Assembly (NCBI GenBank): GCA_010093605.1
Contig: MU004203.1
Location: forward strand, 148,156-200,385
Length of the DNA stretch: 52,230 nt
Direction of reading: 5' to 3'
DNA from: Lophium mytilinum
Taxonomy: Eukaryota
Positions 2,518 through 50,380 of this stretch are shown here, in pieces. Positions within the stretch are counted from its first letter, which is position 1; every line of letters starts with the position of its first letter. A program made the translations under genes and the position numbers. The notes under the pieces were generated by a model. That model was not told the DNA's origin. It saw only the letters and a program-made list of their open reading frames with translations, and ran no database searches.

Positions 2518-4482
2518 ATGAAGCGTGTGTGCTATCCCGTGTCAGATGTGCGCCTGCCGGGATACGACAAACCCGAGAACCTCCCCATCCTGCATGACGG
2601 CTCCTCCGACTCTGAGGCCTATGAGGGGGACTCGGGCTGGGCTGAGGCAGACGACGACGACGATGCGGTTGCGATCAAGTGCTTCTTCTGCGACAAGACC
2701 TTCGCGAACGCCACTGCCATGTGTGATCACTGCAAGGCCGACGAGAGCTTTGACTTCCTCGCAGCGAAGGCAAGAATGAGTTCGTTATATCCCCCCTGTC
2801 CCAGCTTCCCACAGCATGCGCCGTCCCGCAAGCCGCAGGACCTTGCAGCCGATGATACGCAGACCTACCAGGCGGCTTTATCAGCAACCTGGGCGTCTGC
2901 ATCTGTATTTTCATCGCTCATATATACTGGCATTCATGGTTGCTAATTTCACGTGACTTAGATCTCGATTTCGTCGAAACCATCAAGTTCATCAACTACA
3001 TCCGCACGCAGGTAATGCTAGGCCATAGAGACTTCAGTATGGATAGAGAGACCTTCGACATCGAAGAATACGCACGCTCTCCGCTCGACGATGACCCGCT
3101 GCTCTACTCCCTGGACGACCTTCCCGCCGACGACACGCCCGCCCAGGATGACACACCTCACAACGCAGCTGATCTCGAACGCATCGCCGAGCTAGAGAAC
3201 GCCATCCAGCAGCTTACCCTGGTGCACAAGGCTCACAATGAGATGGTTCAGCGAATGCTAGCCGAAAATTCGTCCGAGACCTCATCCGATTCCGATTCCA
3301 ACACCAAGACTGGCCCCATCAAGCCGAAGAAGGCTGCAGAGGAGAAGCTATCAGGTCCGGCGCTCGAGAAAGACAACGACAACTACTTCAATGGCTATGC
3401 CTACAACCGTACGTCCTCCCTCCCTTCTAATCTGGTCCCAACCCCTCTCTCTCACTACGCTACTAACCCCCACCCCAGAAATCCACCGCACCATGCTCGA
3501 AGACACCGTCCGCACCGACGCCTACCGCGACTTCATCTACGACAACAAAAACGTCTTCGCCGGCAAGGTCGTCCTCGACGTCGGCTGCGGCACAGGCATC
3601 CTCTCCATGTTCTGCGCCAAAGCCGGCGCCGCACACGTCTACGCCGTCGACAACTCCAACATCGTGACCAAAGCGCGCGAAATCATCTTCACCAACGGCC
3701 TCGAAAAGACCATCACGGTGCTGCGCGGCAACATCGAAGACATCGCGCTGCCCGTCGCCCACGTCGACATCATCGTCTCGGAATGGATGGGCTACGCGCT
3801 CCTCTACGAAAAAATGCTCGACAGCGTGCTTATCGCGCGCGACCGCTTCCTCGCCCCCGGCGGCCTCATGGTGCCCTCCCACTGCACGCTACGCATCGCG
3901 CCCTACAGCAACGAGAAATTCGGCTCCGAGAACCGCGAGAACGACTTCTGGACCGACGTGTACGGCTTCGACATGACGCCCATGATCGACAACGACAAGC
4001 TCGCGTTCGCCGTCATCGACATCGAGCACGTGATCCCGCAGCGCGTGGCTGGGTCCGCGTCGACCTTCCGCGTGCTCCCCCTCGCGACGGTTTCGGCTAA
4101 AGAACTGCAGTTTACGGCTCCGTTTGAGGTCGAGGTGTCGCGCGATGTGCCGCGGATTGACGGCTGGGTGGTGTGGTTTGACACATTCTTCCTGCCGAAG
4201 CGGGGGGATGTGCTGCCGCTGGACGCGGTGGCGGAGACGTGGCCGGAGAGTGCGCCGGGGAATGCGTTCACGACGGGGCCGTTTGGGGAGAAGGAGACGC
4301 ATTGGGGGATGGGGGTGATGCCGCTGGCGAAGAAGAACGGCACGAAGGCGCTCGCGAAGGGCGCGAGGGTGGGAGGGAGCGTGGCGTATAAGTACGTTGG
4401 GCGGGGGGTGGAGGTAGAGGTGGCGTGGGAGGTGGAGGGGATGGAGGGGGAGGTGGTGCAGACGTGGGTCTGCAACGAGTAG
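2518..4482 (+). CDS. RMT3: Protein arginine N-methyltransferase 3 (ribosomal protein arginine methyltransferase); exons 2518-2779, 2962-3408, 3479-4482
   Basis: N-terminal zinc-finger-like CFFC..H followed by FDF..LDF..IKFINYIR; YFNGY and IHRTMLED.VRT.AY; SAM motif VLDVGCGTGILSMF; double-E loop SEWMGYALLYE; THW loop. Introns GTTCGT..GCTAAT..TAG and GTACGT..TACTAAC..CAG join the ORF pieces in frame. Confidence 0.93.
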
Positions 4483-4879
4483 GGGTTTGGGGGGTTCTTG
4501 GGCCCTGAGGGGCGGTGGTTTGGGTAGTTATGATGAATGAAGTCACGTATGTGACGGGTCCTGCGGGACGCTTTCGGGCTATTTGATGCTTATGACGCTT
4601 TTAGTGCTTATGAGACTCGTGATACTTAGTTCTCTTGATGCTTTTAGTGCTTTTGTGACTTGTTTAGCACGTATATAGGTCGCTTTCGGTACTTTTACTA
4701 CTTCTAGTACTTCTATATCTTGTTCGCTATATTCGCGATACCCCCCTAATGCCCAAAATGTAAGAAAATGTCCCACCACCTCCTCGCCACGTGACCTACC
4801 CCCAAATACCCCCAAAACTCCCATCACCCAATCCATTTCCCCACTCCCCAAAACCCTCTCTTCCTATCAGCCTTCTGGA

Positions 4880-5600
4880 ATTCTCCAAATAGGCCTTAAG
4901 TCCTCCAGGCCTACTTAGAAGCAAGAAAATATGGATGTCACGTTCTAAAGTGTGAGAATTGGGAAAGTGACATGTTTATGTAATATATAAGCTCCGATTC
5001 GAACGCCTTCATTTCGCTATCCTCACGTGTTGCTTTTGTGGAGGATGGAAAGGATTTGAAGGGCTCCTAGGCTAATTAGGAGTAAGAGAGTATGAATGTT
5101 ACGTTCTAGAGGGCGCATATTAGGCCCGAGGCAGATGGATATGGCTTTGGAGATGCTTTGGACGCTCATCTCATATGAGCTATACATAAGCATTCGTTTT
5201 ACGGGGTTGGTTGCGTGTTTAGAGGGCTCCTGAGGGTGGAATGGAGAAGGAGAATAGGATGTAAAGGTCCGGCGCGTGCGAAATAGATCGGTGGTGTTTC
5301 AATACCGCTACATGATCTCTTTCACGCTGCTTACGAATTGAATATACTCATCTATTCATTTTGGTGGGGCTGAAACGGATTTGAAGACTTCCGAGGTGTA
5401 GATGGAATGGGCACAATGGACGCTGCAGCGATGCAAGTCTGAACCTACGTGGTGAATCCGAGCCTTCTAAACTTTGAATTTGAATCATGTCTACTCAATC
5501 GCTCACCTTCATACAGCTATCTGGGTGGCTTGAAGCGCATATCAGGGTTGTCAATATTGCTTTTGAGTGGCTTCGATAAGGATGAGGTTGATTTAAAGCT
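4880..5600 (+). repeat. Degenerate tandem repeat, ~161-163 bp period, ~5 units
   Basis: GGATGT-like motif at 4933, 5094, 5257, 5418, 5580; in several units it is preceded ~40 bp earlier by a TTTGAAG/TTAGAG-GGCTCC-like motif. Confidence 0.5.
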
Positions 5601-5738
5601 GGGCCGTCACCCCACAAAATCAGCCGTGCATCGTCGCCGTTCTCACATGCTTGGCGTAGACGTCAAGGGATCCTCAACACCACCACCATCAATCACATAG
5701 CGTGCCCTCTCTCGCCCCAACATGTCGACCCGATAGCC

Positions 5739-8700
5739 ATGCGCGGCATTCTCCCAGGGCGGCCGCAGGCGAAGCTCCAGGCCGTCACCACCGGGCTTTG
5801 GGGAAGCCTGCAGGTCATTGTGAGCGATCCCGGGCCTTCAACTCGATGCGCATGACGTGTAATACTAATTATTATATTTATAGGCGTATATTTCTGGGAA
5901 CTCGGTCGTTGTCCTCGATGGATATAACCATGTGCTGCAGACCATCTATATCGAGGAAGAAGAGGACCTGGAGGCGATAAAGCTCGATGAGGAGACCGGA
6001 AAGATCGCGACGTGTTCCGGCGAGCATATCTACATATACAAGCCCTATGGCCAGGATGAAGGAGCTTTGAAGGTTCTCATACACCATCTCCCCATGACGA
6101 TCCGAAGCTAACCAGCGCACTTCAATAGTGGTCCCTCCAAGGCACCCTCCCCCTCCCCGAACCGAACGACCTCATCACCACCCTCTCCTGGGGCCTCGAC
6201 GAAGAGCTCCTCGTCGGCAGCACCTCCCTTACCCTCTTCTCCACCCACTCCCATCCCGAACAGATATGGTCAAAACGCCTCGCCAACCCCGCCAAATTCG
6301 CCCAGTTCTCCCCGGACGCAACTTTCATCGCTTCGACGGGGACACACGACCGATTATTGAAAGTATGGCGGCGGCTAGCATTTGGCTCTGTGGAACAGGC
6401 ATTCGATTATAGCTACCTCCCACACCCCTCTGCCATCACGGGCATCCATTGGCGGAAACCATTTCATAAAGAGTCGGCAACGGAAAATGTGCTGTACACC
6501 ATTTGCGCGGATAGCAAGGTGCGGGTGTGGACAACCGGAGAGAATCATGGGAGCGATGGGTTAGTACTGTGGGCGGAGATCGATTTGCTGGAGTCGATAC
6601 AGCCGCGGCATCTGGACCAGCAGAGCAAGAAGCGATACGCCTTTTTCATCGACAGTCGGGACTTCACATATGCGACGGAACGCGCGGTACAAAGAGCGTC
6701 GAATGATGATAAAGAACAAATGGCGCTCGCGCATCTTATCGAAGTCGCGAATCGGAGCCCGGAGGTTTGTGTGGTGCTGGACGATCGGGGGAACATGTCT
6801 GCGTGGGGTCTTGAAAGTATCGGCTGCAAAGTCAGGAAAACGACCGATATATTCAACATCGCGCACGTCGAAGGGCTGCATCTCCATTTCGCGAAAGGGG
6901 CAAGCGGGTTGGACGACAATGTACAGTTCCATGCTTTCTGCGGTGACAAGCCGGATAGCGTCTTTACGCTACTCACGCATCATTTCGATGGCAGGATTGA
7001 GTGGCTGGAGAGCCGTGTTGATCATCTCTTTGACCCTTCGGCGCAGCGGAATCGGATACTGCGGAAGGCGGTTTGGACGGGACATTCGCATGCCATCAAG
7101 AAAGTCAACCGGACAGCGAGCGGAAGAGCTCTGATCTCGCGTACGGTTAATGATGAGAGTGTCGTGTGGGTGCAGAGGCATATCCAGTCCGGGATGACGC
7201 TCCATCGGCATAGCACGGTCAGGCATGAAGGCCATATCCACCGCACTTCTATTCTTCACGAGGGAAATTTCGTCGTCTTCCTGCATCACGATAGCATCTC
7301 GCTCTGGGATTCGCGAGGCCCCGTAGCGGTAGAGGTTGCCCGATGTCAATACAAACTACAAGGTAAACCGCTATGTCTTCTTGTCGTCCCTGAGACCGAA
7401 CCCGGCCATGGTCACATGCACATCGCGACTATCAGCTCCGATATGAAGGGATTGGCTTGGGAGTTACGACTACCGCCAGAGATTGACCCACTGACGGGAC
7501 GAAAACTTTCGACTATCAGCGCATCAGCTCCTGTGTATACTAAGGCTGCGCAATCGAATGGCCACTCTGAAATCACGATGAAGGAGTACGGTTCGTTTGA
7601 TCTCGGCTCTGGCGACGATCTCGCCTTCGTGCTCCCAGTTGATCCCGCCGGTACAGCACCCGTGATCTCAGGATTCCTGGACACCTTCGCACGGGATGTC
7701 GCTATCTCATACACAAAATCTGGCATCATCAAGTCGTGGACCGCGAGGGTCAACTTTGAGGAGCAGAAGCTGGACTGGTTACGCACGTCAACCGTCGAGA
7801 CAAGCATTCCAAACCCACACCTCGCCAGCGGTACATCAATACGGAAGGCTGCACTGGTGGATGCCGAGCAGACTACGCTCACAATTTGGAACACCAGAAG
7901 CGCTCAGCTAGAATACGAAGAACGGTTCGACGGGCACGGCACGATCCAGGATCTCGATTGGTCATCCACACCAGACAACCAATCCATTCTAGCGGTCGGC
8001 TTCCCGCACAGAGTTGTCATATATGCCCAGTTACGGTATGACTATCTCAATGCCGGTCCATCATGGACGCAGATCAGAGAAATCCGCATCCGCGACCTCA
8101 CACCTCATCCCATCGGCGACTCTGTCTGGTTGGGCAGCGGCAACCTTGTCATTGGCGCGGGCAATCAGCTCTTTGTACAAGATGAGCATGTTGAAGTCGA
8201 CGGTCTCTTCCCGAGTCTACGACTCCTCTCGAGGAAGAAGGCAGAGCTTGACATCTTTACCGCAGTCAGCAGGCTTAATGGCCCGCTGCCAGTCTTTCAT
8301 CCCCAGCTACTTTCGCAGTGTGTGCTCTCCGGAAAGGTGGCACTTGTACAGCGGATCTTGCTTACCCTGTACAAGAAGCTGAAGTTCTTCGTGCCCGGTG
8401 ATGAGTTGGAAGGGTTCTTAGGTTTTGAGGCGCACGACTTTTCAGAGGATCTCGATGTAAGCTATGCCGGTTCCTTCCTATCCTCGCTTATGCTAACTCT
8501 ATAGACTGCCATGACTGCCTCTCGAAAGGAAATGCACTCCTCCTACGCCGACTTCTCTGAAGACCCTGATCCCGACACCGTCACCGAAGCTGTCGCCAAT
8601 TCCCTCAAGGAGACTCTCACTAAAATCCAGCTCCCCCAACTCTCTTCCCAAGAGCAATTCCATCTCGCCGACATCATTGAGTGTGTGGGCATGGTCGAGA

Positions 8701-10078
8701 AGCATCGCCGCTCTATTGACGACAACGCCGGTCGCTTCCTACTTTTCTTCAGACAGCATGTCCTCCGCTCTGGCCAGCATTCCGCAGAGGAGGTCCCCAT
8801 CTCCTGGCGCGAAATCACTTGGGCTTTCCACAGCGGCAGCCAAGACATCCTTGTCGATCTTGTCTCCCGCCACTTCAGCGGCCGTATGCTATGGCGCCAC
8901 GCGAGGGAAAGCGGCATCTTCATGTGGATGACTGACCTCGCCGCCCTAGTAAGCTCGTCAACTATTCCCTCCCCAAATGATGCTAATAAACCTAATAGCG
9001 CGCCCAATTCGAGTCCGTCGCTCGCAACCAATACACCTCCACCGACGACAAAAACCCCGTCGACTGCTCCCTCTTCTACCTCGCCCTCCGCAAAAAAGCC
9101 GTCCTCATCGGCCTGTGGCGCATGGCCACGTGGTCGCGCGAACAAACTCCCACCCTCCGCCTCCTCTCCAACAACTTCACCGACGCACGCTGGAAAACCG
9201 CCGCCTTAAAAAACGCATACGCACTCATGGGAAAACGCCGCTTCGAATACGCCGCCGCCTTCTTCCTCCTCGCCGACCACCTCGCCGACGCCGTCTCCGT
9301 TCTCTCCAACCAACTCAACGACACCCAACTCGCCATCGCCGTCGCGCGCGTCTACGAAGGCGACGACGGGCCCATCCTCACCGCCTTCCTCAAGGAAAAA
9401 GTCCTGCCCCAGGCCGCGCGCGAGGGCAACCGCTGGCTCGCGACGTGGGCGTTCTGGATGCTAGGGAAGCGGGACAGCGCTGTGCGCGCCCTCGTGCAGC
9501 CCCTCACGACGCTAATGTCGCCGCCAGAGACGCCGTCGTTTGAGTCGAGGCTGTTTTCGACGGACGATCCGGCGTTGGTGGTGTTGTATAAGATTCTTCG
9601 CGCGAAGAGTTTGCAGACGCTGAGGGGCGCGGCGATGGTGAGTCCGCGCGCGGAGTGGGAGTTTGTGCTGCATACCGCCGGGTTGTATGAGCGGATGGGG
9701 TGTGATCTGTTAGCGTTGGATTTGGTCAAGACGTGGGAGTTTTTGTTGCCAAGGCTGCCGCAGAGTCGGTTGCCGCGGACGCCGGTGGATGGGGGGGTGG
9801 TGAAGGCGAAGGGAACGTTGGATGCGGAGTTTGATCCGAGGATGCTGTTGAGGCGGAGGAGTAGTTTGGTTGTGGCGGATTTGCCAACCAGGGAGCATGT
9901 TAGGAATGCGTTGCAGGAGGCTGAAGGGGACATTGAGAGCGATGATGAGGAGGATGAGGAGGAGGAGGCGGAGGGGAAGATGGATGGGGTTAAGGAGAAG
10001 GAGGGGCCGAAGAAGCCGCCGCCGACGCAGTTTCAGGAGCCGGATGCTGGGAGTTTGTTGGATGCGTTTGGGTTTTAG
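5739..10078 (+). CDS. RAV1: RAVE complex subunit Rav1 (WD40 / Rav1p_C; rabconnectin-3/DMXL family); exons 5739-5819, 5884-6072, 6129-8456, 8505-8948, 8999-10078
   Basis: N-terminus MRGILPGRPQAKLQA; WD repeats (YLPHP..TGIHW, WTGH); C-terminal motifs NGPLPVFHPQLLSQ, WREITWAFHS.SQ, WKTAALKNAYALMGKRRFEYAAAFFLL, YERMGCDLLALDLV. Four GT-AG introns with CTAAY branch points restore one continuous frame. Confidence 0.93.
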
Positions 10079-13500: not shown

Positions 13501-15371
13501 AATGCGACTCAAAAAACTCCTCCTGCCGCCCCTAGCCTATCCAGGCTTTCTACATTCGAATGAAACGGTCACAACCGTCCAGATTAAACCAGCTGACTCT
13601 CCTGTTGTGTTCCCCAATGCTTCTTCCTCCCGACAAGGACGTTCCTAGGCAGCCAGCCTGCCTAGGGCTCGATATATCGAGCGTTTATAGGAAGGCGTGC
13701 TCTTGGCCGAAGGGATTGAGGTTGGTATGGCAAGCGGTCGAGAACGGGTCACACGTTGTGAGCGTTTGGGGCGTGGGAGAGATTGTCGAGGGAGGCAAAG
13801 GTCTCATTTCCCGCCCGTCGAAGAGAGTGGCAGAGTAGCTTATGGATCTGGAATGGAGAGAAGAAGGGCTGGGGATCTGTTAGCTGGCATGAACGAAAGT
13901 GTTTTGGTGTTGTAATGTTTGTCTGGCCGCCTCGTTGATGTGAAAATTGAGAGGGTAGCGGACAACGCGGTCGTCACTAGAAATGTGAGATAGGATTGAA
14001 GATACAGGATGAGCTGTCCGCGTCTGACTTGAAATATTGTGAATTGTCTTAAGACTTGGGAGTCGGCGTCCATGTGAGTTGGCCCGGCCGCCATCTTGCG
14101 CAAGACCTGACGAGCGCCGCTTGTACTGAATTGGCTCTGGACGCCGTATGAGCTTACCAAGGGTCCAAAGCTGTTCGGCCGGTGGGTTCGTTGATGCAGA
14201 GCCGTTGGTGTTGAGGTTCACAACCTCCTCGCGCGGTCTACGGGTGGATTGAAGGAGGCGGCTGGCAGTGCCATCGCCATCGGCAGCAGAGTTTTGAACA
14301 TGGAAGGCTCTTGTAGCTGTTGCTTGAGTAATGTAGAGGGACTAGAGCATGGTGAGGCCGAAGCAGACGCGTCAGAAGATACTGAGTATGTCGTCGTCTC
14401 AAGGAAGATCTGAGTGGTGTCGGCCATGCTGAAGCCATCGGTGGAGCAGAAATAAGGATAGTCTCTTCCTTAGCTCTTTTGCGATCATAAGTAATATCCA
14501 TGAGGTTTCAAGATGCGCGGTGGTGTAGGGAGAGAAGGCCTGTTGGAGGCGCTGTCTTGACGGCCGTCTTGTGGGATAGGCGGCGCCGTCGACCTCCGGG
14601 GAGCAGATATCTCGATGGGAGTCTTTTAGTTAGCTATTCAAAGAAAAGTCTTCTGTTCAAAGGGATCTCACGATGCGTCGCGGGGTGGCCAATGAAGGAA
14701 TGCTGTGCTGTCCGTGACGGTTTCTCGCCCACCGTATGGCGGCGGCATCGCCATCTAGAAAGTATTCACGGGGCAAACCACTCTCCCGACCAAACAGCTG
14801 GCCTTGGGACATACTCATGATTACGATGCATGGCCCTCTATCTCGACAGATCCTGGGTTGATCGCCGTCTCGCAGACGCCCGGTGTCAGACGGCACAACA
14901 CACGAAGTAGCTCACGGGGATGGCTTCCTATTGTTTAGTAGACCTTCTTAGGATACCTAGAGCTCTACGGAGATCGTGAGACGCGCCTTTCCGAAGGCGC
15001 TGCTCTTGGTGTGGCCACCGGAGCTCTTCAACACCATCGCCAGCTCACTCCCGTCGGGCCGCCGCAACGATCGCTGACAGTCATCAAGCATGCTTGCTAC
15101 CGCTCTACAACATACATAGAGCATGAGACCAACGCGCGGCAAGCATGGAGAGTAGCAGCATGACAGCATGGAGCCCTACACCAGAGGCGCACAGCCATTG
15201 CCTATCATCATCACAACAAGACGCGTCAAAACCACCGCGACCAACACCGCACACCTAGACACAGTCAAGGCAAGAGCTGATCAAAACACCAAAGCATTTC
15301 TTCTTCGAGTACCCAGACAAGCTGAGCAGTTCAATGAAAAAAGAGGTTGAAGAGATATCTCATTCGAGTTT

Positions 15372-15553
15372 GTTTGTTCCAAAAATTCCCTGCCGATCCC
15401 GAAGGACCAACAGGAGCAGGTCGATTGTAGTTTTCAATCAGCAAAAGACACGGTCTCGGACGAATCCTCACTGACGCGCGTAATGCCCTGAGAAGATGTT
15501 AGTGAGGAGCTGTGGAAAGGAAGGGGTGGAGTGGACGAACCTTGCACTAGGAT
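15372..15553 (-). ncRNA. U4: U4 spliceosomal snRNA interrupted by a spliceosomal intron (exon 1 15553-15541; exon 2 15487-~15372)
   Basis: The spliced sequence AUCCUAGUGCAAG|GGCAUUACGCGCGUCAGUGAGGAUUCGUCCGAGACCGUGUCUUUUGCUGAUUGAAAAC closely follows S. cerevisiae U4 as I recall it (AUCCUUAUGCACGGGAAAUACGCAUAUCAGUGAGGAUUCGUCCGAGAUUGUGUUUUUGCUGGUUGAAA). It has the kink-turn 5' stem-loop, stem I UUUGCUG, a 3' hairpin CCUGUUGGUCC-UUCG-GGAUCGGCAGG and the Sm site AAUUUUUGG (15387-15379). The 3' end is approximate. Confidence 0.93.
15488..15540 (-). other. 53-nt U2-type spliceosomal intron inside the U4 snRNA gene
   Basis: Minus strand reads AAG|GTTCGT (same donor as RMT3 intron 1), a pyrimidine-rich body, branch point CACTAAC, then ATCTTCTCAG|GG. 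Removing it restores a colinear U4. Confidence 0.88.
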
Positions 15554-15585: not shown

Positions 15586-15593
15586 TTTATATA
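15586..15593 (-). promoter_or_regulatory. TATA box of the U4 gene
   Basis: TATATAAA on the minus strand, 33-40 nt upstream of the inferred U4 5' end (15553). Confidence 0.7.
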
Positions 15594-15617
15594 GCTGGCG
15601 GCCAGGCGCTAGTGGAG

Positions 15618-15630
15618 TGATGACTCATCA
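15618..15630. promoter_or_regulatory. AP-1/Gcn4(CpcA)-type site upstream of U4
   Basis: TGATGACTCATCA (perfect ATGACTCAT core with extended dyad symmetry), flanked by direct GCGCTAG copies at 15606 and 15631. Confidence 0.4.
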
Positions 15631-16587
15631 GCGCTAGACAGTTTAACGGGGGTAGTTTAATCGTCCCGGTGCACCTACACTGTAGAGGGGTGGTGCCTGG
15701 GGCCGTGCGTTGGAGAGCGCCGGGCGGTGGAATGTCGCGGAATCTGGCGGAAGCTCTGGAGTGGTGCCTGGTTCCAGGACGTGGCTCGTGAGTGAAGCAG
15801 TGTGGCGCGGGAGGTGAGAGTGGCTTGCCCGAGCGCTAGCTACGCCCCGAGCAGCCTAATACTATGCCGTTCCTGCTCGGACCGCCTTAGAGATTGTGAA
15901 GAGGACAAATTTGTGTCATCTGAACCCTCATGCCTTCTTATGCCTATTCCACCACTCTGCGTCTGCCACCGGCCTTGCTTCTCTCCTGTTGTATCCAGTG
16001 TCGAACACTCTGATCTGAGAACTATTTAATCACATTCGTATCCTCTAAATATATCTTGCATTAGCATTATGTGTCCTGAATTCACAAATCTGTACTTTGC
16101 GGGTTGTGCGTCGCGAGAATTTGGTGATGCCTCTTCCGTTCATCCATATTACACACTTTCACATCTACACTACACTCTTATTGACACCTGCATGCTTTCT
16201 ACTCTACGGAACTTCTTTTAGCAGGATCTATCTGTTGTCGTACATGCTGCAGCTCTTAGATATTCTCAACACGGTAGCCGATTTGATACTTTGAAACTGG
16301 ATATTTCCATCGAGGATATGTTACAATTCCCCTCTCAAAGTCTCGAGACTGCAAATCAATCTAGTGTCACGGATAGTAGCTCACTTAAACACCGACAATA
16401 GTTCACTGTGTTGCGAATAGTAGCTCACTGTGATCTAGATCGTAGCTCATTGTATTTTAGGAAAAACTCATTCGGCGTTATATTAATTGTCAGCAAGATA
16501 TCGATTCGTTCTCGAAGTTCTGCGTCATGTACTACTCGACCCTTACTCACGGCTCCCGCTCTTCGATTATCTTGAAGGAGCGATCTC

Positions 16588-21120: not shown

Positions 21121-21644
21121 CTAGCAGCTGGAGCAGCTTCATGCGTTGAAAGAGAGGGCATGATACGGAGGTAGTGCATGATGATTTGAAGGAAATGAGA
21201 CACGGGGAATTGGATTGAGGGTCATTTTGGATTACGGCGTAGAGAGTGAAGTGGGAGGACGGCAATGTCAGAGGTGGCTTCACGTGTTTTCAGAGAAACC
21301 AAGGTCTTGAGGATAGAGACTGTGATTTGAAATATATGGGACTTGAAAAGCTAACTCTGAGGGCATATTTCGCCATCTGAGGGAACAGACAGCATGCCAA
21401 TGATACGGTGTGAGACGGTTTTGTATGTCGAGAGGGTATGGAAAGCGATGAAGTGACAAGAGCAGATTTACCATCTACCTACCTAGCTTGCAACCTCCAC
21501 TATCAAAGTTGGTATAGGCACGAACCATACACCTGAAATCAGCATGCCAGACAGCCGATTGTGTCACTCATCTACCACCGTCTGCCATGGCTCAACACAT
21601 TGTGAAAAATTTCGTCTCACCAACAATTTTGTCGACTCCAACTA

Positions 21645-24600
21645 TCAATCCACAGCATCGCTATCCTCAGCATCCTCATCCTCACCTTCGCCCTCTTCCT
21701 CCTCATCCTCCGCATCCGAAATCTCTTCTCCAAGCGCTTTAAGCCGTTCCTAGAACACATTAGCAACCCACCCTCACAAAATCCTTCATCTCCCGAACGA
21801 CAACATACCTTATCCCTCCCCCGCTTCTCTTCCAAATCCCCAAGCACCACAAACAAATCATCCAACTCCGTCTGCACCGCCTTCCTCTCTGCCTCCTTCT
21901 CCTCCAGTCCCTTCTCCGCCTTCTTCATCTTATCCTGCGCATCCTTAACTTTCCACACATTCTCCTGCACCTCCGTCTTCAGTTGCCTGTTATCCGCCTT
22001 CAGCTTCTCCACCTCAGCCTCTCTAGTCGCTTTCTCCTCTTTCAACGCCTCGGACTCGTCCTCCGCTTTCTTGAGTTCCGCTTCGAGCGACGAGATAGTC
22101 TGCCGCACGAGCGCGATCTCGTCTTTCGTGCGGCGCTGGGTGGCCTGGAAGCTCTGGATCGTTTCGAGCGCATCGCCGCGCTCCTCCTCCGTTTTCTCGT
22201 TGCGGGCTTCGGCGTCGCGGAGGGCTTTGCTCAGGTCGTGGAGCTTGCTTTCGTACTCCTGCTTCGTCTTCGCGACAGCGGTGGGCGTCTCTTTCTGCGC
22301 CTGCGCGAGCTTGGTGTTCAGTGCAGCTAACTGCAGGTTGTGCTTATTCTCGAGGTCGAGCGTCGCCTGGCGGTGTTCACGGTCGAGCTTCGCAGCGGCT
22401 TCGTCGTGTGTGCGGTGAAGGTCTTCGTTAATGCGCTTGATGGTGTTGAGTTGGGTCAGTGACTGGTCTTGGGTTTTGCGGTGGTCGGCTAGTTCTTGGT
22501 TGAGCTTCTGCTCCATGGCGAGGAGCTCGGCTTGAGCTTTTTCGAGGGCTTGGATCTTTTCGTCGAGTTGGCCGCGTAAGGAGTCGACGAGGTCTCTATC
22601 GATGCCTTGCTCGGTCTGGTGGATCTCTAGTCCGGGGTCACGATCGATGGTCCTGGACAGGCGGCTGAAGTTATCTTTGAGAAAATCAACGAAGGTTGTG
22701 TCGAAGTACACCTCCGGCAGGTTGCCGCTAGAGGCGTGAGAGGAGACCTCAAAATCGCGGACTAGCGGGTGTTGGCGGAGATTCGTGATGGCGTCTAGGT
22801 ACTTCTCTCGGCCCAGGCGGGTGGTGAGGAATGGCTGGAGGTCGCGGCGCGAGATGGGGGAGTCCTTGGTAGAGAATTCGTAAATGATTCCGAGGAGAGC
22901 AGCACAAAGACCTCTGATGACAGCTAGATCGGCGCCTGGTTTCGATGCCGCGTTGACCAGACTCTCAAGACTGCTACCCTCGTTGAGAAAATCGTTCACT
23001 GCGTTGGCATCCTCGAACAGCCAACCACAAAGGAGCATCAGGTAGCCAATCGAGATCCGCTCGTCTTCCCCAATCTGGAGACTCGCGATCAGGTTGCCGG
23101 TAATAGCCTGAATGCAGGTCACGACTTCCTCTCCACTTTCCGCGTCCCCTTCCTCGACTGCCATCAGTAGATCCTTCCCTTCTCTGTCGTCATAGATGAG
23201 ATGCAACACTAAGATGGCCGCAAACCAGGTCCGGTAGGGGTCGATGGTCTGAGAGCCTTGTGGGCCTGCGACGAGCGTCGTGAGAACGTTCGCTGTTTCA
23301 TCTGCGCCAGAGACGTGCCCATCGATGGCTCTCTTTAGGAAGTGCAGTCGAATGGGAGTGTGATTGTAGAAGTACGCTTTTATACATTCACAAGCTGCGA
23401 ATCTCGCATCAAAAAGCTCTGTTGACGCGGGGCTCAGGGCGAGGTCCAGCAAGGCATCGATAACGTAAACTTTGGGAACGCCATTTGACAATGCATCGCC
23501 GTTTGTGTCTAGCTGTGTTTGGACCAAGGGACTGACTTGGAGTTGCGCGAAACCTTCTTGTAGGCGAGCGTTTCCTCTGATCATGTCTGCGCAAGTGTTC
23601 AAAGCCTGGATAGTGAGCCATGGATGATGATAAATAAAGGGATTCATTTACCTCGACTTTGATGGGGATGGTTGTCGATTTGTCAAATGCCATGTTCAAC
23701 ACCTTCTGCAGCAACCCATGCTTTTGGAATGCATTTTGATTGAGTAGAGTGCTTGTGCTGCCTTGAAGAAGAAACATGCGCACTATGGCCAGTAGTCCCC
23801 AGATGTTCTTGTCTTTCTGAGGGCTCGTCCAATCATCTTCTGGTGGCCCGGGCGACTTCGCTTTCTTGATGGCTGGCTCTGGCAATAGTGCTGCGAGCCT
23901 CGCAACACCGCCTGTCTCCCGAAACGCGGTCTGATTGGAAGCGTTGTAGTGCACGAGATTCGCGAGCAAGGAGAGACAATCCTGAACGATTATTCCGCCT
24001 TGTAATAGAGATCCCTCGGCGTCAATGAGACTGAAGACCCTTTCAAACGCGTTCTCGAAGACGAAGAGTTTCTGAAGCTCGGTTGACGACTGGGACAGGT
24101 CGTTGAGAACCATGAGGCCAGCTACACACCAAAAGAACATATCAGCAGGTGTTCTCCATCATCCCCAGATTGTTCCTACCATTCCGTACTGCGTCTCGAG
24201 TGTCGTCCAGGGTTGCTACCAGCCTTGTGGTGCCGAACGGAGCTGTCAGGACACACTCCTGAGTCCTGTCGGGGCGCGCGCTCGAGATTGCTTGTATGAT
24301 TTGTAATGCATACAGCCTAGAATAGAAGTCGTGCGTCTCAAGGAGGTCGAGGAGGATCGTTATGTTATCTTGACGCTACCATAAGCTCAGTACGTGCAAG
24401 GTTGTGGAAAGGGAGTGGTAGTACCTGCGTAAATTCATCTGCGAGCCAAAGAGCAATCTCGTCGGAGGCTTCAGGCTGTCACTTCATCAGCACAACATCC
24501 CACAACCACCAACATGCCCTGGGTCTCGTACACTTGTCTCGTTGGGGTTGAACAGCATCAGGAGGGTCTCGAGGACCACCTTGATTGTGTCCACATCCTC

Positions 24601-24807
24601 GGCGTCCTTTGTCAAACAACTTATCAGGCCACGAAGCGAGCCTGATGCCACTGACGCCGGAAATTCTTTGGCGAAGCTGCGGAGCCCCAAGATGGCTCCC
24701 CGGCGGTCCTCGAGGAGGGTGGCGTTCGTCAGGCGGCTGCTGAGGGTACTGATGGTGTCTGTAGCCGTCTGCTTGGCCGGCGCCTGGGCCTCCAGCATAC
24801 GCAGCAT
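21645..24807 (-). CDS. USO1: Vesicle tethering protein Uso1/p115; exons 24807-24532, 24475-24425, 24375-24180, 24121-23652, 23605-21809, 21749-21645
   Basis: Head motifs ATLLEDRR.AILGLRSFAK, EIALWLADEF, DFYSRLY, LQKLFVFENAFERVF, GGIIVQDCL.LL.NL; a long coiled coil; C-terminal QTELDDLFVVL.DLEEKR..DK|ERLKALGEEISD and an acidic tail. Five GT-AG introns keep frame. Confidence 0.93.
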
Positions 24808-25495: not shown

Positions 25496-28400
25496 ATGGG
25501 TGTACCAGCCTTGTTCCGCTGGCTGTCGAAGAAATACCCTAAGATTGTCTCCACCGTTATCGAGGCGAAGCCCAAAGATCTCGATGGCGTCGAGGTCCCC
25601 GTCGACTACACCCAGCCCAATCCCAATGGCGAGGAGTTCGACAACTTGTACCTGGATATGAATGGCATTGTTCATCCGTGTTCTCATCCCGAGGACAAGC
25701 CCGCCCCTCGCAACGAGGTCGAGATGATGTTGGCTGTGTTCACCTACACCGAGCGCGTTGTCAACATGGCTCGTCCGCGCAAGTTGCTGTACCTTGCAGT
25801 TGGTATGTCGTCCCATCCCTGCTTCAATCCCTATCCCCAAGATCTATTCCCTTGCCATGATCTTGGTCGTCGGCTACAAGTCCTGGGATGCGCCGCATCC
25901 TTAATCTGCCTCCCAATTCCCACTTCCTCTCCTACTCCTTCTCCTTCTCCTTCTTCCACTCCTCTCAAGTCAATTCAGCTTCGCTAACAGGAGATCTTCT
26001 AGATGGTGTTGCCCCTCGCGCAAAACAGAATCAGCAGCGGAAGCGACGCTTCATGTCCGCTCGAGAGGCGGCCGAGAAGGACGAGATGAAGGTTGAATTT
26101 GACAAGATGCTCCGGGACAAGCGTATGGCCGCTTTCGCAACGGGCGACGCAGAAGAGGAGGATGACGGTGAAGAGGTGGAAGCGGATGACGACCTGCCCA
26201 AGAAGACGTGGGACAGCAACGCCATCACCCCCGGCACTCCGTTCATGCACTTGCTTGCCGCGTCCTTGAAGTACTGGACTCAGTACAAGCTCAGCACCGA
26301 TACCAGCTGGAAAAACCTCAAGGTGATCATCTCCGACGCGTCTGTTCCTGGCGAAGGAGAACACAAGATCATGAACTTCATCCGGTCGCAGCGTCGCTCG
26401 CCCGACCACAACCCGAACACCCGCCACGTCATCTATGGCTTGGATGCAGATCTCATTATGCTTGCTCTTGTTACCCACGAGCCGCATTTCAGGGTTCTGC
26501 GCGAGGATGTCTTCTTCGAGGCTAACAAGAACGCCTGTCGGAAGTGTGGACAGCAGGGACACTATGCTGACCAGTGTACCGGTGCCGTCGCCAAGAAGGA
26601 GGATGAGCACAAGAACGCCGAGCCAGAAGAGAAGCCTTTCATCTGGCTTCATGTCAATGTGCTCCGGGAATACCTCGAGGTCGAGATGTCTGTTCCGGGC
26701 ATGCCGTTTTCAACCGACATCGAGCGTGCGATCGACGATTGGGTTTTCATGTGTTTCTTTGTCGGTAACGATTTCCTTCCCCACCTTCCAAGTCTCGAGA
26801 TTCGCGAGGATGGCATCGATACTTTGATCGGTCTCTGGCGCAAATTGTTCCGCGAAATGGGTGGATACGTCACCGAGGATGGCCAGGTCGTTATGGCGCG
26901 TGCCCAGATCATTCTCAAAGGCCTAGCGGCTCTGGAGAACGGTATCTTCAAGCGTCGCAAGCAGAATGAAGATCGACGAGAGGAGGGCATTCGTCGGCGA
27001 GCTGAGCGAGACGCCCAAAATGCGGCTCGGCGAGGAGGCATCGGAATGCCCCCAGCGAAGCGTATCAAGGAGACCACCGAGACTTATACCAATATTGCAT
27101 CTTTCGCGCCGGACAAGCTGCAGTCCGCTGAGGCGAGACAGGCCTCGCATGCTATGCTTGATAAGGACGCTCACAACAAGGCCAATATGAGCGCTGCCGC
27201 TGTTCTCAAGGAGCAACTGAAGGGCAAGAAGCGTACTGCCACCGATGTTGATGCTGAGGATGCAGCCTCAAATGTCGAAGAATCTCCTTCGAGCAACAGC
27301 AGGAAGTTAGAGCTCGTGGATGACAGCGACACCGGCACACCAGGTCGCGCGACGCCTGTTGTCGAGCACAAGCACAAGGGCGGCGAAAAGGACCCAGCTC
27401 CGGACACAGTCATGCTGTGGGAAGACGGCTATGCCGAGCGCTATTACGAGCAGAAGTTCAACGTTGCTCCCGACGACTACGAGTTCCGCAACAAGGTTGG
27501 ACGATCGTACATGGAAGGCCTTTGCTGGGTGCTCCTCTACTATCTCCAAGGCTGCCCGGACTGGGAGTGGTACTACCCGTACCATTACTCTCCCTTCGCG
27601 GCTGACTTTGTGGATATTGATCAGATGACGATCGACTTCAAGAAGGGCGAGCCGTTCAAGCCCTACGAGCAGCTCATGGCAGTCCTACCCGCTGCTTCGA
27701 ACCACGCCATCCCTGAGGCGTACCGGACTCTCATGACCGACGAGGACAGCGTCATTCGCGAGTTCTACCCGGTCGACTTCGTCCTGGACCTGAACGGAAA
27801 GAAGTTCGACTGGCAGGGTGTCGCGCTTATTCCATTTGTCGACATGGACAAGCTCAAGGAGGCCATGCGCACTAAGGATCATCTGCTCACCGACGACGAG
27901 AGGGCTCGCAACGCCATGGGACATGAGATGCTTATCTTCTCGATCGAGCATGACCTCTACGCAAAGGTCACCGAACTCTTCTATTCTCTCAAGGCCGAAG
28001 AGAGCGAGACTATGACGCTGGACCCAAAGGCCAGTCATGGATTGATTGGCAAGGTTGTCAAAGACGAGGACTATCTTCCAGGCAGCTCTTTGACGTATCC
28101 TCTTGCGTCAGACCAGATGCCTGACATCGAAGACAACAAGTCGATTAGGTATCGTTTCGTTTTTACCCTTCTACTTTTCATTTCATTATTGAACTTTGCT
28201 AACACTGCTACTCTAGTCTCGTCTACTTGATGCCCAAGCACAAGTCGGCCCACAAGTCCATGCTCCTCACCAACCTGGAGCATCCTGCCCGCGTCCTTAG
28301 CGATAGCGACAAGGCTGAGACACGTGACCGAGCCGGAGGAAATCGAAGCAATCAGCGCGGAGGCTTCAATCGAGGCGGCTCCAGCAACCGCGGTGGCCCT

Positions 28401-37810: not shown

Positions 37811-38703
37811 NNNNNNNNNNNNNNNNNNNNNNNNNNNNNNNNNNNNNNNNNNNNNNNNNNNNNNNNNNNNNNNNNNNNNNNNNNNNNNNNNNNNNNNNNN
37901 NNNNNNNNNNNNNNNNNNNNNNNNNNNNNNNNNNNNNNNNNNNNNNNNNNNNNNNNNNNNNNNNNNNNNNNNNNNNNNNNNNNNNNNNNNNNNNNNNNNN
38001 NNNNNNNNNNNNNNNNNNNNNNNNNNNNNNNNNNNNNNNNNNNNNNNNNNNNNNNNNNNNNNNNNNNNNNNNNNNNNNNNNNNNNNNNNNNNNNNNNNNN
38101 NNNNNNNNNNNNNNNNNNNNNNNNNNNNNNNNNNNNNNNNNNNNNNNNNNNNNNNNNNNNNNNNNNNNNNNNNNNNNNNNNNNNNNNNNNNNNNNNNNNN
38201 NNNNNNNNNNNNNNNNNNNNNNNNNNNNNNNNNNNNNNNNNNNNNNNNNNNNNNNNNNNNNNNNNNNNNNNNNNNNNNNNNNNNNNNNNNNNNNNNNNNN
38301 NNNNNNNNNNNNNNNNNNNNNNNNNNNNNNNNNNNNNNNNNNNNNNNNNNNNNNNNNNNNNNNNNNNNNNNNNNNNNNNNNNNNNNNNNNNNNNNNNNNN
38401 NNNNNNNNNNNNNNNNNNNNNNNNNNNNNNNNNNNNNNNNNNNNNNNNNNNNNNNNNNNNNNNNNNNNNNNNNNNNNNNNNNNNNNNNNNNNNNNNNNNN
38501 NNNNNNNNNNNNNNNNNNNNNNNNNNNNNNNNNNNNNNNNNNNNNNNNNNNNNNNNNNNNNNNNNNNNNNNNNNNNNNNNNNNNNNNNNNNNNNNNNNNN
38601 NNNNNNNNNNNNNNNNNNNNNNNNNNNNNNNNNNNNNNNNNNNNNNNNNNNNNNNNNNNNNNNNNNNNNNNNNNNNNNNNNNNNNNNNNNNNNNNNNNNN
38701 NNN
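37811..38703. other. Assembly gap
   Basis: Run of N inside LINE ORF2. Confidence 1.
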
Positions 38704-48646: not shown

Positions 48647-48956
48647 NNNNNNNNNNNNNNNNNNNNNNNNNNNNNNNNNNNNNNNNNNNNNNNNNNNNNN
48701 NNNNNNNNNNNNNNNNNNNNNNNNNNNNNNNNNNNNNNNNNNNNNNNNNNNNNNNNNNNNNNNNNNNNNNNNNNNNNNNNNNNNNNNNNNNNNNNNNNNN
48801 NNNNNNNNNNNNNNNNNNNNNNNNNNNNNNNNNNNNNNNNNNNNNNNNNNNNNNNNNNNNNNNNNNNNNNNNNNNNNNNNNNNNNNNNNNNNNNNNNNNN
48901 NNNNNNNNNNNNNNNNNNNNNNNNNNNNNNNNNNNNNNNNNNNNNNNNNNNNNNNN
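48647..48956. other. Assembly gap
   Basis: Run of N. Confidence 1.
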
Positions 48957-50172: not shown

Positions 50173-50380
50173 NNNNNNNNNNNNNNNNNNNNNNNNNNNN
50201 NNNNNNNNNNNNNNNNNNNNNNNNNNNNNNNNNNNNNNNNNNNNNNNNNNNNNNNNNNNNNNNNNNNNNNNNNNNNNNNNNNNNNNNNNNNNNNNNNNNN
50301 NNNNNNNNNNNNNNNNNNNNNNNNNNNNNNNNNNNNNNNNNNNNNNNNNNNNNNNNNNNNNNNNNNNNNNNNNNNNNNNN
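50173..50380. other. Assembly gap
   Basis: Run of N. Confidence 1.

Follow-up and report, generated by a model that had tools for sequence, protein, structure and literature searches.

Introns are known in the genes of several spliceosomal snRNAs. The portion of a 2018 review available to this study (PMC5855946) lists U6, U2, U5, and U1, and U4 is absent from that list. U6 introns occur in fungi, fission yeast among them (Tani and Ohshima 1989, 1991; Canzler et al. 2016; as cited in excerpts of PMC5855946 and PMC5832005), and U1, U2, and U5 introns occur in Rhodotorula hasegawae (Takahashi et al. 1993, 1996; as cited in excerpts of PMC5855946). According to the available part of PMC5832005, no small structured RNAs other than U3 and U6 are often interrupted. 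The introns of U6, U2, and U5 have been interpreted as remnants of reverse splicing at the catalytic centre, and it is pointed out in the excerpts of PMC5855946 that U1 leaves before catalysis, so that U1 introns already strain this idea. A full-text literature search, which covered parts of PMC5855946, PMC5832005, PMC2396436, PMC2586383, PMC6679479, and bioRxiv 10.1101/226894, among others, returned no report of a U4 intron, and an older report may exist. Introns in snRNA genes are therefore already known, whereas an intron in U4 is new relative to the portions of the literature searched.

The locus presented in this study lies on the minus strand of the window, i.e., the whole stretch of 52,230 nt that was analyzed, and is very probably a U4 snRNA gene split by an mRNA-type intron inside its stem II segment, the transcript of which would need splicing. 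As far as the fungal U6 introns are described in the excerpts, this intron resembles them in being a GT-AG intron with a branch site in a conserved, paired snRNA segment, in that the spliceosome would be needed for a part of its own RNA, and in that several insertions are found in fungi. However, U6 is a Pol III transcript located at the catalytic centre, whereas U4 is made by Pol II, belongs to the Sm class, and departs before catalysis; also unlike the U6 introns, the intron of the window U4 is cap-proximal, with a first exon of 13 nt. The U1 intron of R. hasegawae, so far as the same excerpts describe it, is comparable in that U1, like U4, leaves before catalysis, although R. hasegawae, unlike the window fungus, is a basidiomycete yeast. 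For this yeast, U4 was reportedly examined as well and was intronless. The introns of fungal U3 snoRNA genes, as given in the available part of PMC5832005, are likewise small, patchily distributed in fungi, and located in a TATA-driven, independent gene for a capped small RNA, but U3 is no spliceosome component, so there is no self-reference. Intronless U4 genes of the RF00015 family, e.g., the metagenome locus L059, share the mature elements, the first 16 nt, and the promoter spacing with the window gene; L059 is contiguous, whereas in the window gene nt 13 and nt 14 are separated by an additional 53 nt.

The Rfam U4 model (RF00015) matches the minus strand at 15497..15368 with 80.7 bits (gathering score = 46, E = 2e-16), and this is the sole match at the gathering threshold in the whole window. 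A permissive E-value scan of the window with Rfam gave no U6 and no other snRNA, only a chance-level match to PK-IAV (E = 0.32). The parts of the gene, with coordinates in the window, are as follows.

15614..15652, minus strand: promoter-like element upstream of the gene, spanning about -61 to -99 relative to the start, with CTAGCGC and the palindrome TGAGTCA
About 15612..15606, minus strand: second copy of CTAGCGC, about -53 to -59 from the start
15593..15586, minus strand: TATA box TATATAAA, 40 nt upstream of the exon 1 start (15553)
15553..15541, minus strand: predicted exon 1, ATCCTAGTGCAAG, 13 nt, corresponding to U4 nt 1-13, which form the 5' portion of the stem II strand that pairs with U6
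15540..15488, minus strand: predicted intron, 53 nt, GT-AG, with donor GTTCGT, CACTAAC, a pyrimidine run, and CAG
15540..15535, minus strand: predicted intron donor GTTCGT
15502..15498, minus strand: predicted intron branch site CTAAC, with the branch A (15499) 11 nt upstream of the junction
15490..15488, minus strand: predicted intron acceptor CAG, after the pyrimidine run
15487..~15372, minus strand: predicted exon 2, starting with GGCATTAC at 15487, U4 nt 14 to about 129, including the end of the stem II strand
15481..15448, minus strand: k-turn 5' stem-loop (AGUGA .. GA), from the RF00015 alignment with standard pairs, also formed in the cofold
15444..15435, minus strand: stem I strand, from the RF00015 alignment
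15416..15388, minus strand: 3' stem-loop before the Sm site, from the RF00015 alignment
15387..15379, minus strand: Sm site AAUUUUUGG, from the RF00015 alignment
15298..15344, minus strand: short repeated element located 28-74 nt downstream of the U4 3' end, with about 30 copies in the genome

The U4 parts and the split that an earlier note had described at 15372..15553 were all found at those coordinates on the minus strand. The 3' hairpin of that description stands as the stem-loop preceding the Sm site (15416..15388) and falls as a terminal hairpin following it; the RF00015 terminal hairpin after the Sm site has no match in the U4 of the window. The 3' end is approximate, at 15372 or 15368. 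Upstream of the TATA box, CTAGCGC, TGATGAGTCATCA, and CTAGCGC follow one another on the minus strand (about 15652..15606), and the element at 15614..15652 is a putative promoter element; TGAGTCA or CTAGCGC lies at similar distances upstream of the metagenome loci L001, L014, L031, L040, and L053, as well as L013, L018, L030, and L038. A pyrimidine run separates the TATA box from exon 1, as in other U4 genes. The downstream element (15298..15344) is possibly a shared 3'-end or termination element.

The intron is of a size that is usual for its host. The Uso1 open reading frame in the window is 99% identical to a Dothideomycete protein, and the next named matches (72-74%) are to other Dothideomycetes. 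Five Uso1 introns, checked by mapping the protein onto the window, are 46, 49, 56, 58, and 59 nt long, and the 53 nt of the U4 intron fall within this range. The third donor position is T in the GTTCGT of U4, whereas it is A in all five Uso1 introns, which makes GTTCGT a weak or atypical donor. The neighboring genes are ordinary housekeeping genes, i.e., Rav1 (6129-10078), Uso1/p115 (21617-24807), and a 5'-3' exonuclease of the Xrn family (25861-28230). Elsewhere in the window, N runs occupy 37811-38703, 48647-48956, and 50173-50380, and an AT-rich stretch at approximately 36-43 kb contains many TA-rich matches to intron-like motifs.

Metagenome contigs were searched with a 19-nt k-turn core, which gave at least 114 loci with 118 pattern matches. 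In most of these loci, the U4 start, ATC(C/T)NAGTGCANGGGC, is located exactly 27 nt before the core and follows a TATA box and a pyrimidine run. A profile of 120 columns was made from 43 distinct contiguous (intronless) fungal U4 genes, and the splice-aware alignment to this profile allowed introns of 30-300 nt at a penalty of 8 bits for GT-AG and 12 bits for GC-AG. The window sequence aligned with one 53-nt intron after nt 13 at 158.3 bits, against 148.0 bits without introns; the net gain of 10.3 bits that remains after the 8-bit penalty is modest. When 600 random window segments were put in front of exon 2 instead, none matched this gain (maximum 7.64) or the total score (maximum 156.3), and the same alignment called an intron in none of 60 distinct loci with contiguous 5' ends, among the matches listed. 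Among the metagenome U4 genes, the intronless ones have their TATA box 39-66 nt before the start; in those with introns, it lies 35-48 nt before the predicted exon 1. The first 16 nt of the spliced U4 of the window are identical to the first 16 nt of L059, and the bodies of the two are 86.6% identical.

The 99 metagenome matches that reached at least 130 bits represent 76 distinct genes or layouts, and intron calls in 19 loci below 130 bits were ignored. Clear introns are present in at least 12 of the 76 distinct U4 genes listed, with 18 introns and net gains of 10.7-101.8 bits; the carriers are L019, L022 (three introns), L023, the L026 group, L043, L046, L055, L079, L091, L095, L103, and L108. 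The weaker calls in L033, L056, and L065 are plausible, and first exons of 6-7 nt, which the penalty hides, are seen in a further seven (L002, L009/L036, L035, L060, L096, L106, and L109). The intron-bearing fraction predicted by these alignments is thus at least 12 of 76 and perhaps up to 22 of 76 among the matches listed. Two calls were rejected as spurious, namely the doubtful one in L003 (119 nt, gain 2.7) and the 144-nt "intron" of L080, which has no branch motif. The intron in the window is not as isolated a case as the earlier note supposed, U4 introns being frequent in environmental fungi.

The metagenome introns occupy at least 14 positions (after nt 5, 6, 7, 9, 12, 14, 22, 24, 30, 62, 63, 65, 76, and 77), and the gap at nt 28-46 is an artefact of locus finding, as the search pattern excludes introns there. 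Among the positions shared between genes are those after nt 9 (four genes, three at high and one at moderate confidence) and after nt 14 (three genes), and the genes that share them have different intron interiors but keep canonical splice signals. None of the 76 distinct metagenome genes among the matches listed has an intron after nt 13, the position in the window; in L108, a GTAAGT intron follows nt 12. The GTTCGT donor of the window recurs in three related metagenome U4 genes, L002, L033, and L109, with introns after nt 7, 5, and 7, respectively, and L002 is the closest of the three. This hints at a common origin of the GTTCGT introns with sliding, and repeated insertion is kept as an alternative. 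GC-AG introns with GCAAGT donors are found in L055 (after nt 30) and L095 (after nt 9). Judged by their sequences, L087, which is contiguous, and L026, which has a 54-nt intron after nt 24, are a natural presence/absence pair, with promoters identical at 60 of 70 positions and mature regions at 124 of 135. Copies of the U4 5' part only, extending through the k-turn stem-loop and then running into unrelated sequence, were also observed (L015, L074, L082, and L100; L042, L054, L072, L097, and the second match of L104). Such a 5' fragment lies in opposite orientation approximately 300 nt from a full U4 in L042, L054, L097, and L071/L072 (one contig), and approximately 90 nt from a full U4 gene in L104.

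The window gene is not the only U4-like sequence in its genome. Depth was taken as the summed contig depth of two DNA runs that are possibly from the source organism, with 163 in the single-copy flank. The depth is approximately 1200-2100 over the U4 body, i.e., 7-12 times single copy, approximately 700 over the 3' end of the intron, and approximately 300-400 over the 5' half of the intron and exon 1. Paralog contigs that resemble U4 (15386-15509) carry substitutions and small indels; because of this variation and the depth of the body, several U4-like copies are present. Such copies, possibly intronless, could supply U4, and the insert in the window could then be real but located in a dead or minor paralog, the functional RNA coming from copies with or without introns. 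We regard this as improbable. In the window copy, the TATA box and the upstream element are preserved together with all conserved U4 elements, and the splice signals are intact; one paralog contig of 99 nt extends into the 3' part of the intron, to 15509, and the depth across exon 1 and the 5' half of the intron, approximately 1.8 times single copy, may mean that a second copy also carries the intron. The frequency of intron-bearing U4 genes in other fungi also argues against a dead paralog.

The flanking elements are themselves repeated in the genome. The element at 15298-15344 has a depth of 4400-5800 against 163 (approximately 30 times single copy) and that at 15614-15652 approximately 16 times single copy, and other contigs contain both elements with different contents between them. 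No further copy of either element turned up in the window or among the metagenome loci examined (at least 114). Both are approximately 90% alike in a run of a second organism, guessed to be RNA, in which the U4 is uncovered and which has no bearing on expression. The two elements may form a cassette of promoter and terminator that small-RNA genes share.

If the gene began where Rfam places it, at 15497, there would be no intron, and ATCCTAGTGCAAG and the splice-like signals upstream of it would be due to chance. Rfam aligns model positions 1-138 from 15497, where AUCUU matches the consensus start, and MAFFT aligns the region likewise. Splice-like patterns are also unremarkable as such: the window contains 11 occurrences of GTNNGT..CTAAC..YAG by itself, no more than its shuffled versions do (14.5 +/- 3.9), and a search of the window for introns bridging open reading frames gave 2488 candidates and was uninformative. 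What is rare is the combination, in which splice-type ends are placed so that their removal restores the 5' end of U4, and none of the 600 control upstream segments provided an equally good exon 1. In the Rfam alignment, the first bases of the model are placed on ATCTTCTC inside the 53 nt, at the cost of deleting 3 nt from the stem II strand, and in the MAFFT alignment with relatives the 13-nt exon 1 is left unplaced while the 3' end of the intron is aligned in its stead. Several U4 introns (15488-15497 in the window; L002, L009, L033, and L060) end in ATCT..CAG and thereby mimic the U4 5' end, which explains why both programs anchor in the 3' end of the intron (ATCTTCTCAG). This mimicry may be a chance likeness of the pyrimidine tract or a trace of an origin by duplication. 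In addition, no TATA-like match is found within 80 nt upstream of 15497, and the intronless L059 scores higher in Rfam than the window gene (96.6 against 80.7 bits).

Pairing with U6 also distinguishes the two starts. The partner was the U6 of L021 (RF00026, 90 bits), which is from another fungus and serves as a proxy for the U6 of the window fungus. The calculated duplex energies are as follows.

Spliced window U4, nt 1-18, with L021 U6: -24.6 kcal/mol
L059 5' end with L021 U6: -24.6 kcal/mol
Window 18-mer from the Rfam start with L021 U6: -9.5 kcal/mol
Random window 18-mers with L021 U6: -8.3 +/- 3.8 kcal/mol

Only the spliced form makes a normal stem II (nt 1-16) with this U6, whereas the 18-mer from 15497 pairs like random ones. 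Stem I contributes -10.9 kcal/mol, and the cofold of spliced U4 with L021 U6 shows the canonical layout, with stems I and II (stem II at nt 1-16) and both the 5' and the 3' stem-loop. On the contig of L021 (1236 nt; L021:47-289), the complete U6 (90 bits) and an equally complete U4 (106.6 bits) adjoin each other in a head-to-tail arrangement, without a spacer or promoter; this contig may be RNA-derived or a chimeric assembly. With these results, a start at 15497 without an intron is very improbable. The placement of an intron in stem II proposed in the earlier note is supported by the promoter spacing, the profile score, the identity to the intronless L059, the U6 pairing, and the other intron-bearing U4 genes.

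Introner-like elements are a source of introns in Dothideomycetes, and although the host belongs to this class and the intron is short, it is scarcely credible that the 53 nt are a copy of such a multiplying element, as the intron interior (15504-15541) has a depth of only about 1.8-2.5 times single copy at a likeness of at least 85% and a blastn search of the window with the U4 region gave no second copy, so that neither source yielded the many near-identical copies typical of such an origin.

In the preferred reading, an intron-split U4, RNA polymerase II would start at the A of ATCC (15553), 40 nt after the TATA box and below the TGAGTCA/CTAGCGC element, a position that we infer from homology. 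The primary transcript would consist of a capped exon 1 of 13 nt, a 53-nt U2-type intron (GTTCGT .. CTAAC .. CAG), and a U4 body of 116 nt. The spliceosome would then remove the 53 nt and join ..GCAAG to GGCAUUAC, the junction being an AAG|G proto-splice site. Splicing would restore the continuous 16-nt stem II strand, and the unspliced RNA would be without a full stem II. Fungal U4 genes would have acquired many introns, independently or by sliding, and this would be one of them. Most likely it is an insertion that a strongly transcribed Pol II gene tolerates and that may be neutral, rather than a purpose-built regulator. A more far-reaching proposal, which we consider unlikely, is that fungal U4 is often colonized by introns, mainly in both of its U6-pairing strands, and that in this lineage the weak, cap-proximal GTTCGT donor ties the U4 supply to spare splicing capacity, a putative homeostatic loop in which the spliceosome would gauge itself through its U4 precursor.

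The introns affect annotation to different degrees. U4 genes score 53-79 bits in Rfam when their first exon is longer or when they have two introns, whereas L108, with its intron after nt 12, keeps 94.1 bits; the multi-intron L022 and L046 are missed at the gathering threshold (2 of the 20 loci scanned). The expectation that a covariance model would truncate or miss such genes was thus realized in both forms, as the start of the window gene was set inside the intron (15497) and L022 and L046 were lost. Because covariance-model annotation mis-sets the 5' end of intron-bearing U4 genes, as in the window, or misses them, as in L022 and L046, the catalogues of fungal snRNAs are probably incomplete.

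It is reasonable to regard U4 as a poor fit to the reverse-splicing model, and the available part of PMC5855946 already makes the same point for U1. If confirmed, the U4 introns, at no fewer than 14 positions and in 12 or more of the 76 genes listed, would weaken the argument from the catalytic centre, and more general causes would be favored, for example strong transcription by Pol II, proto-splice sites, or a 5' bias. With splicing as inferred here, the spliceosome of this fungus would have to process the precursor of its own U4.
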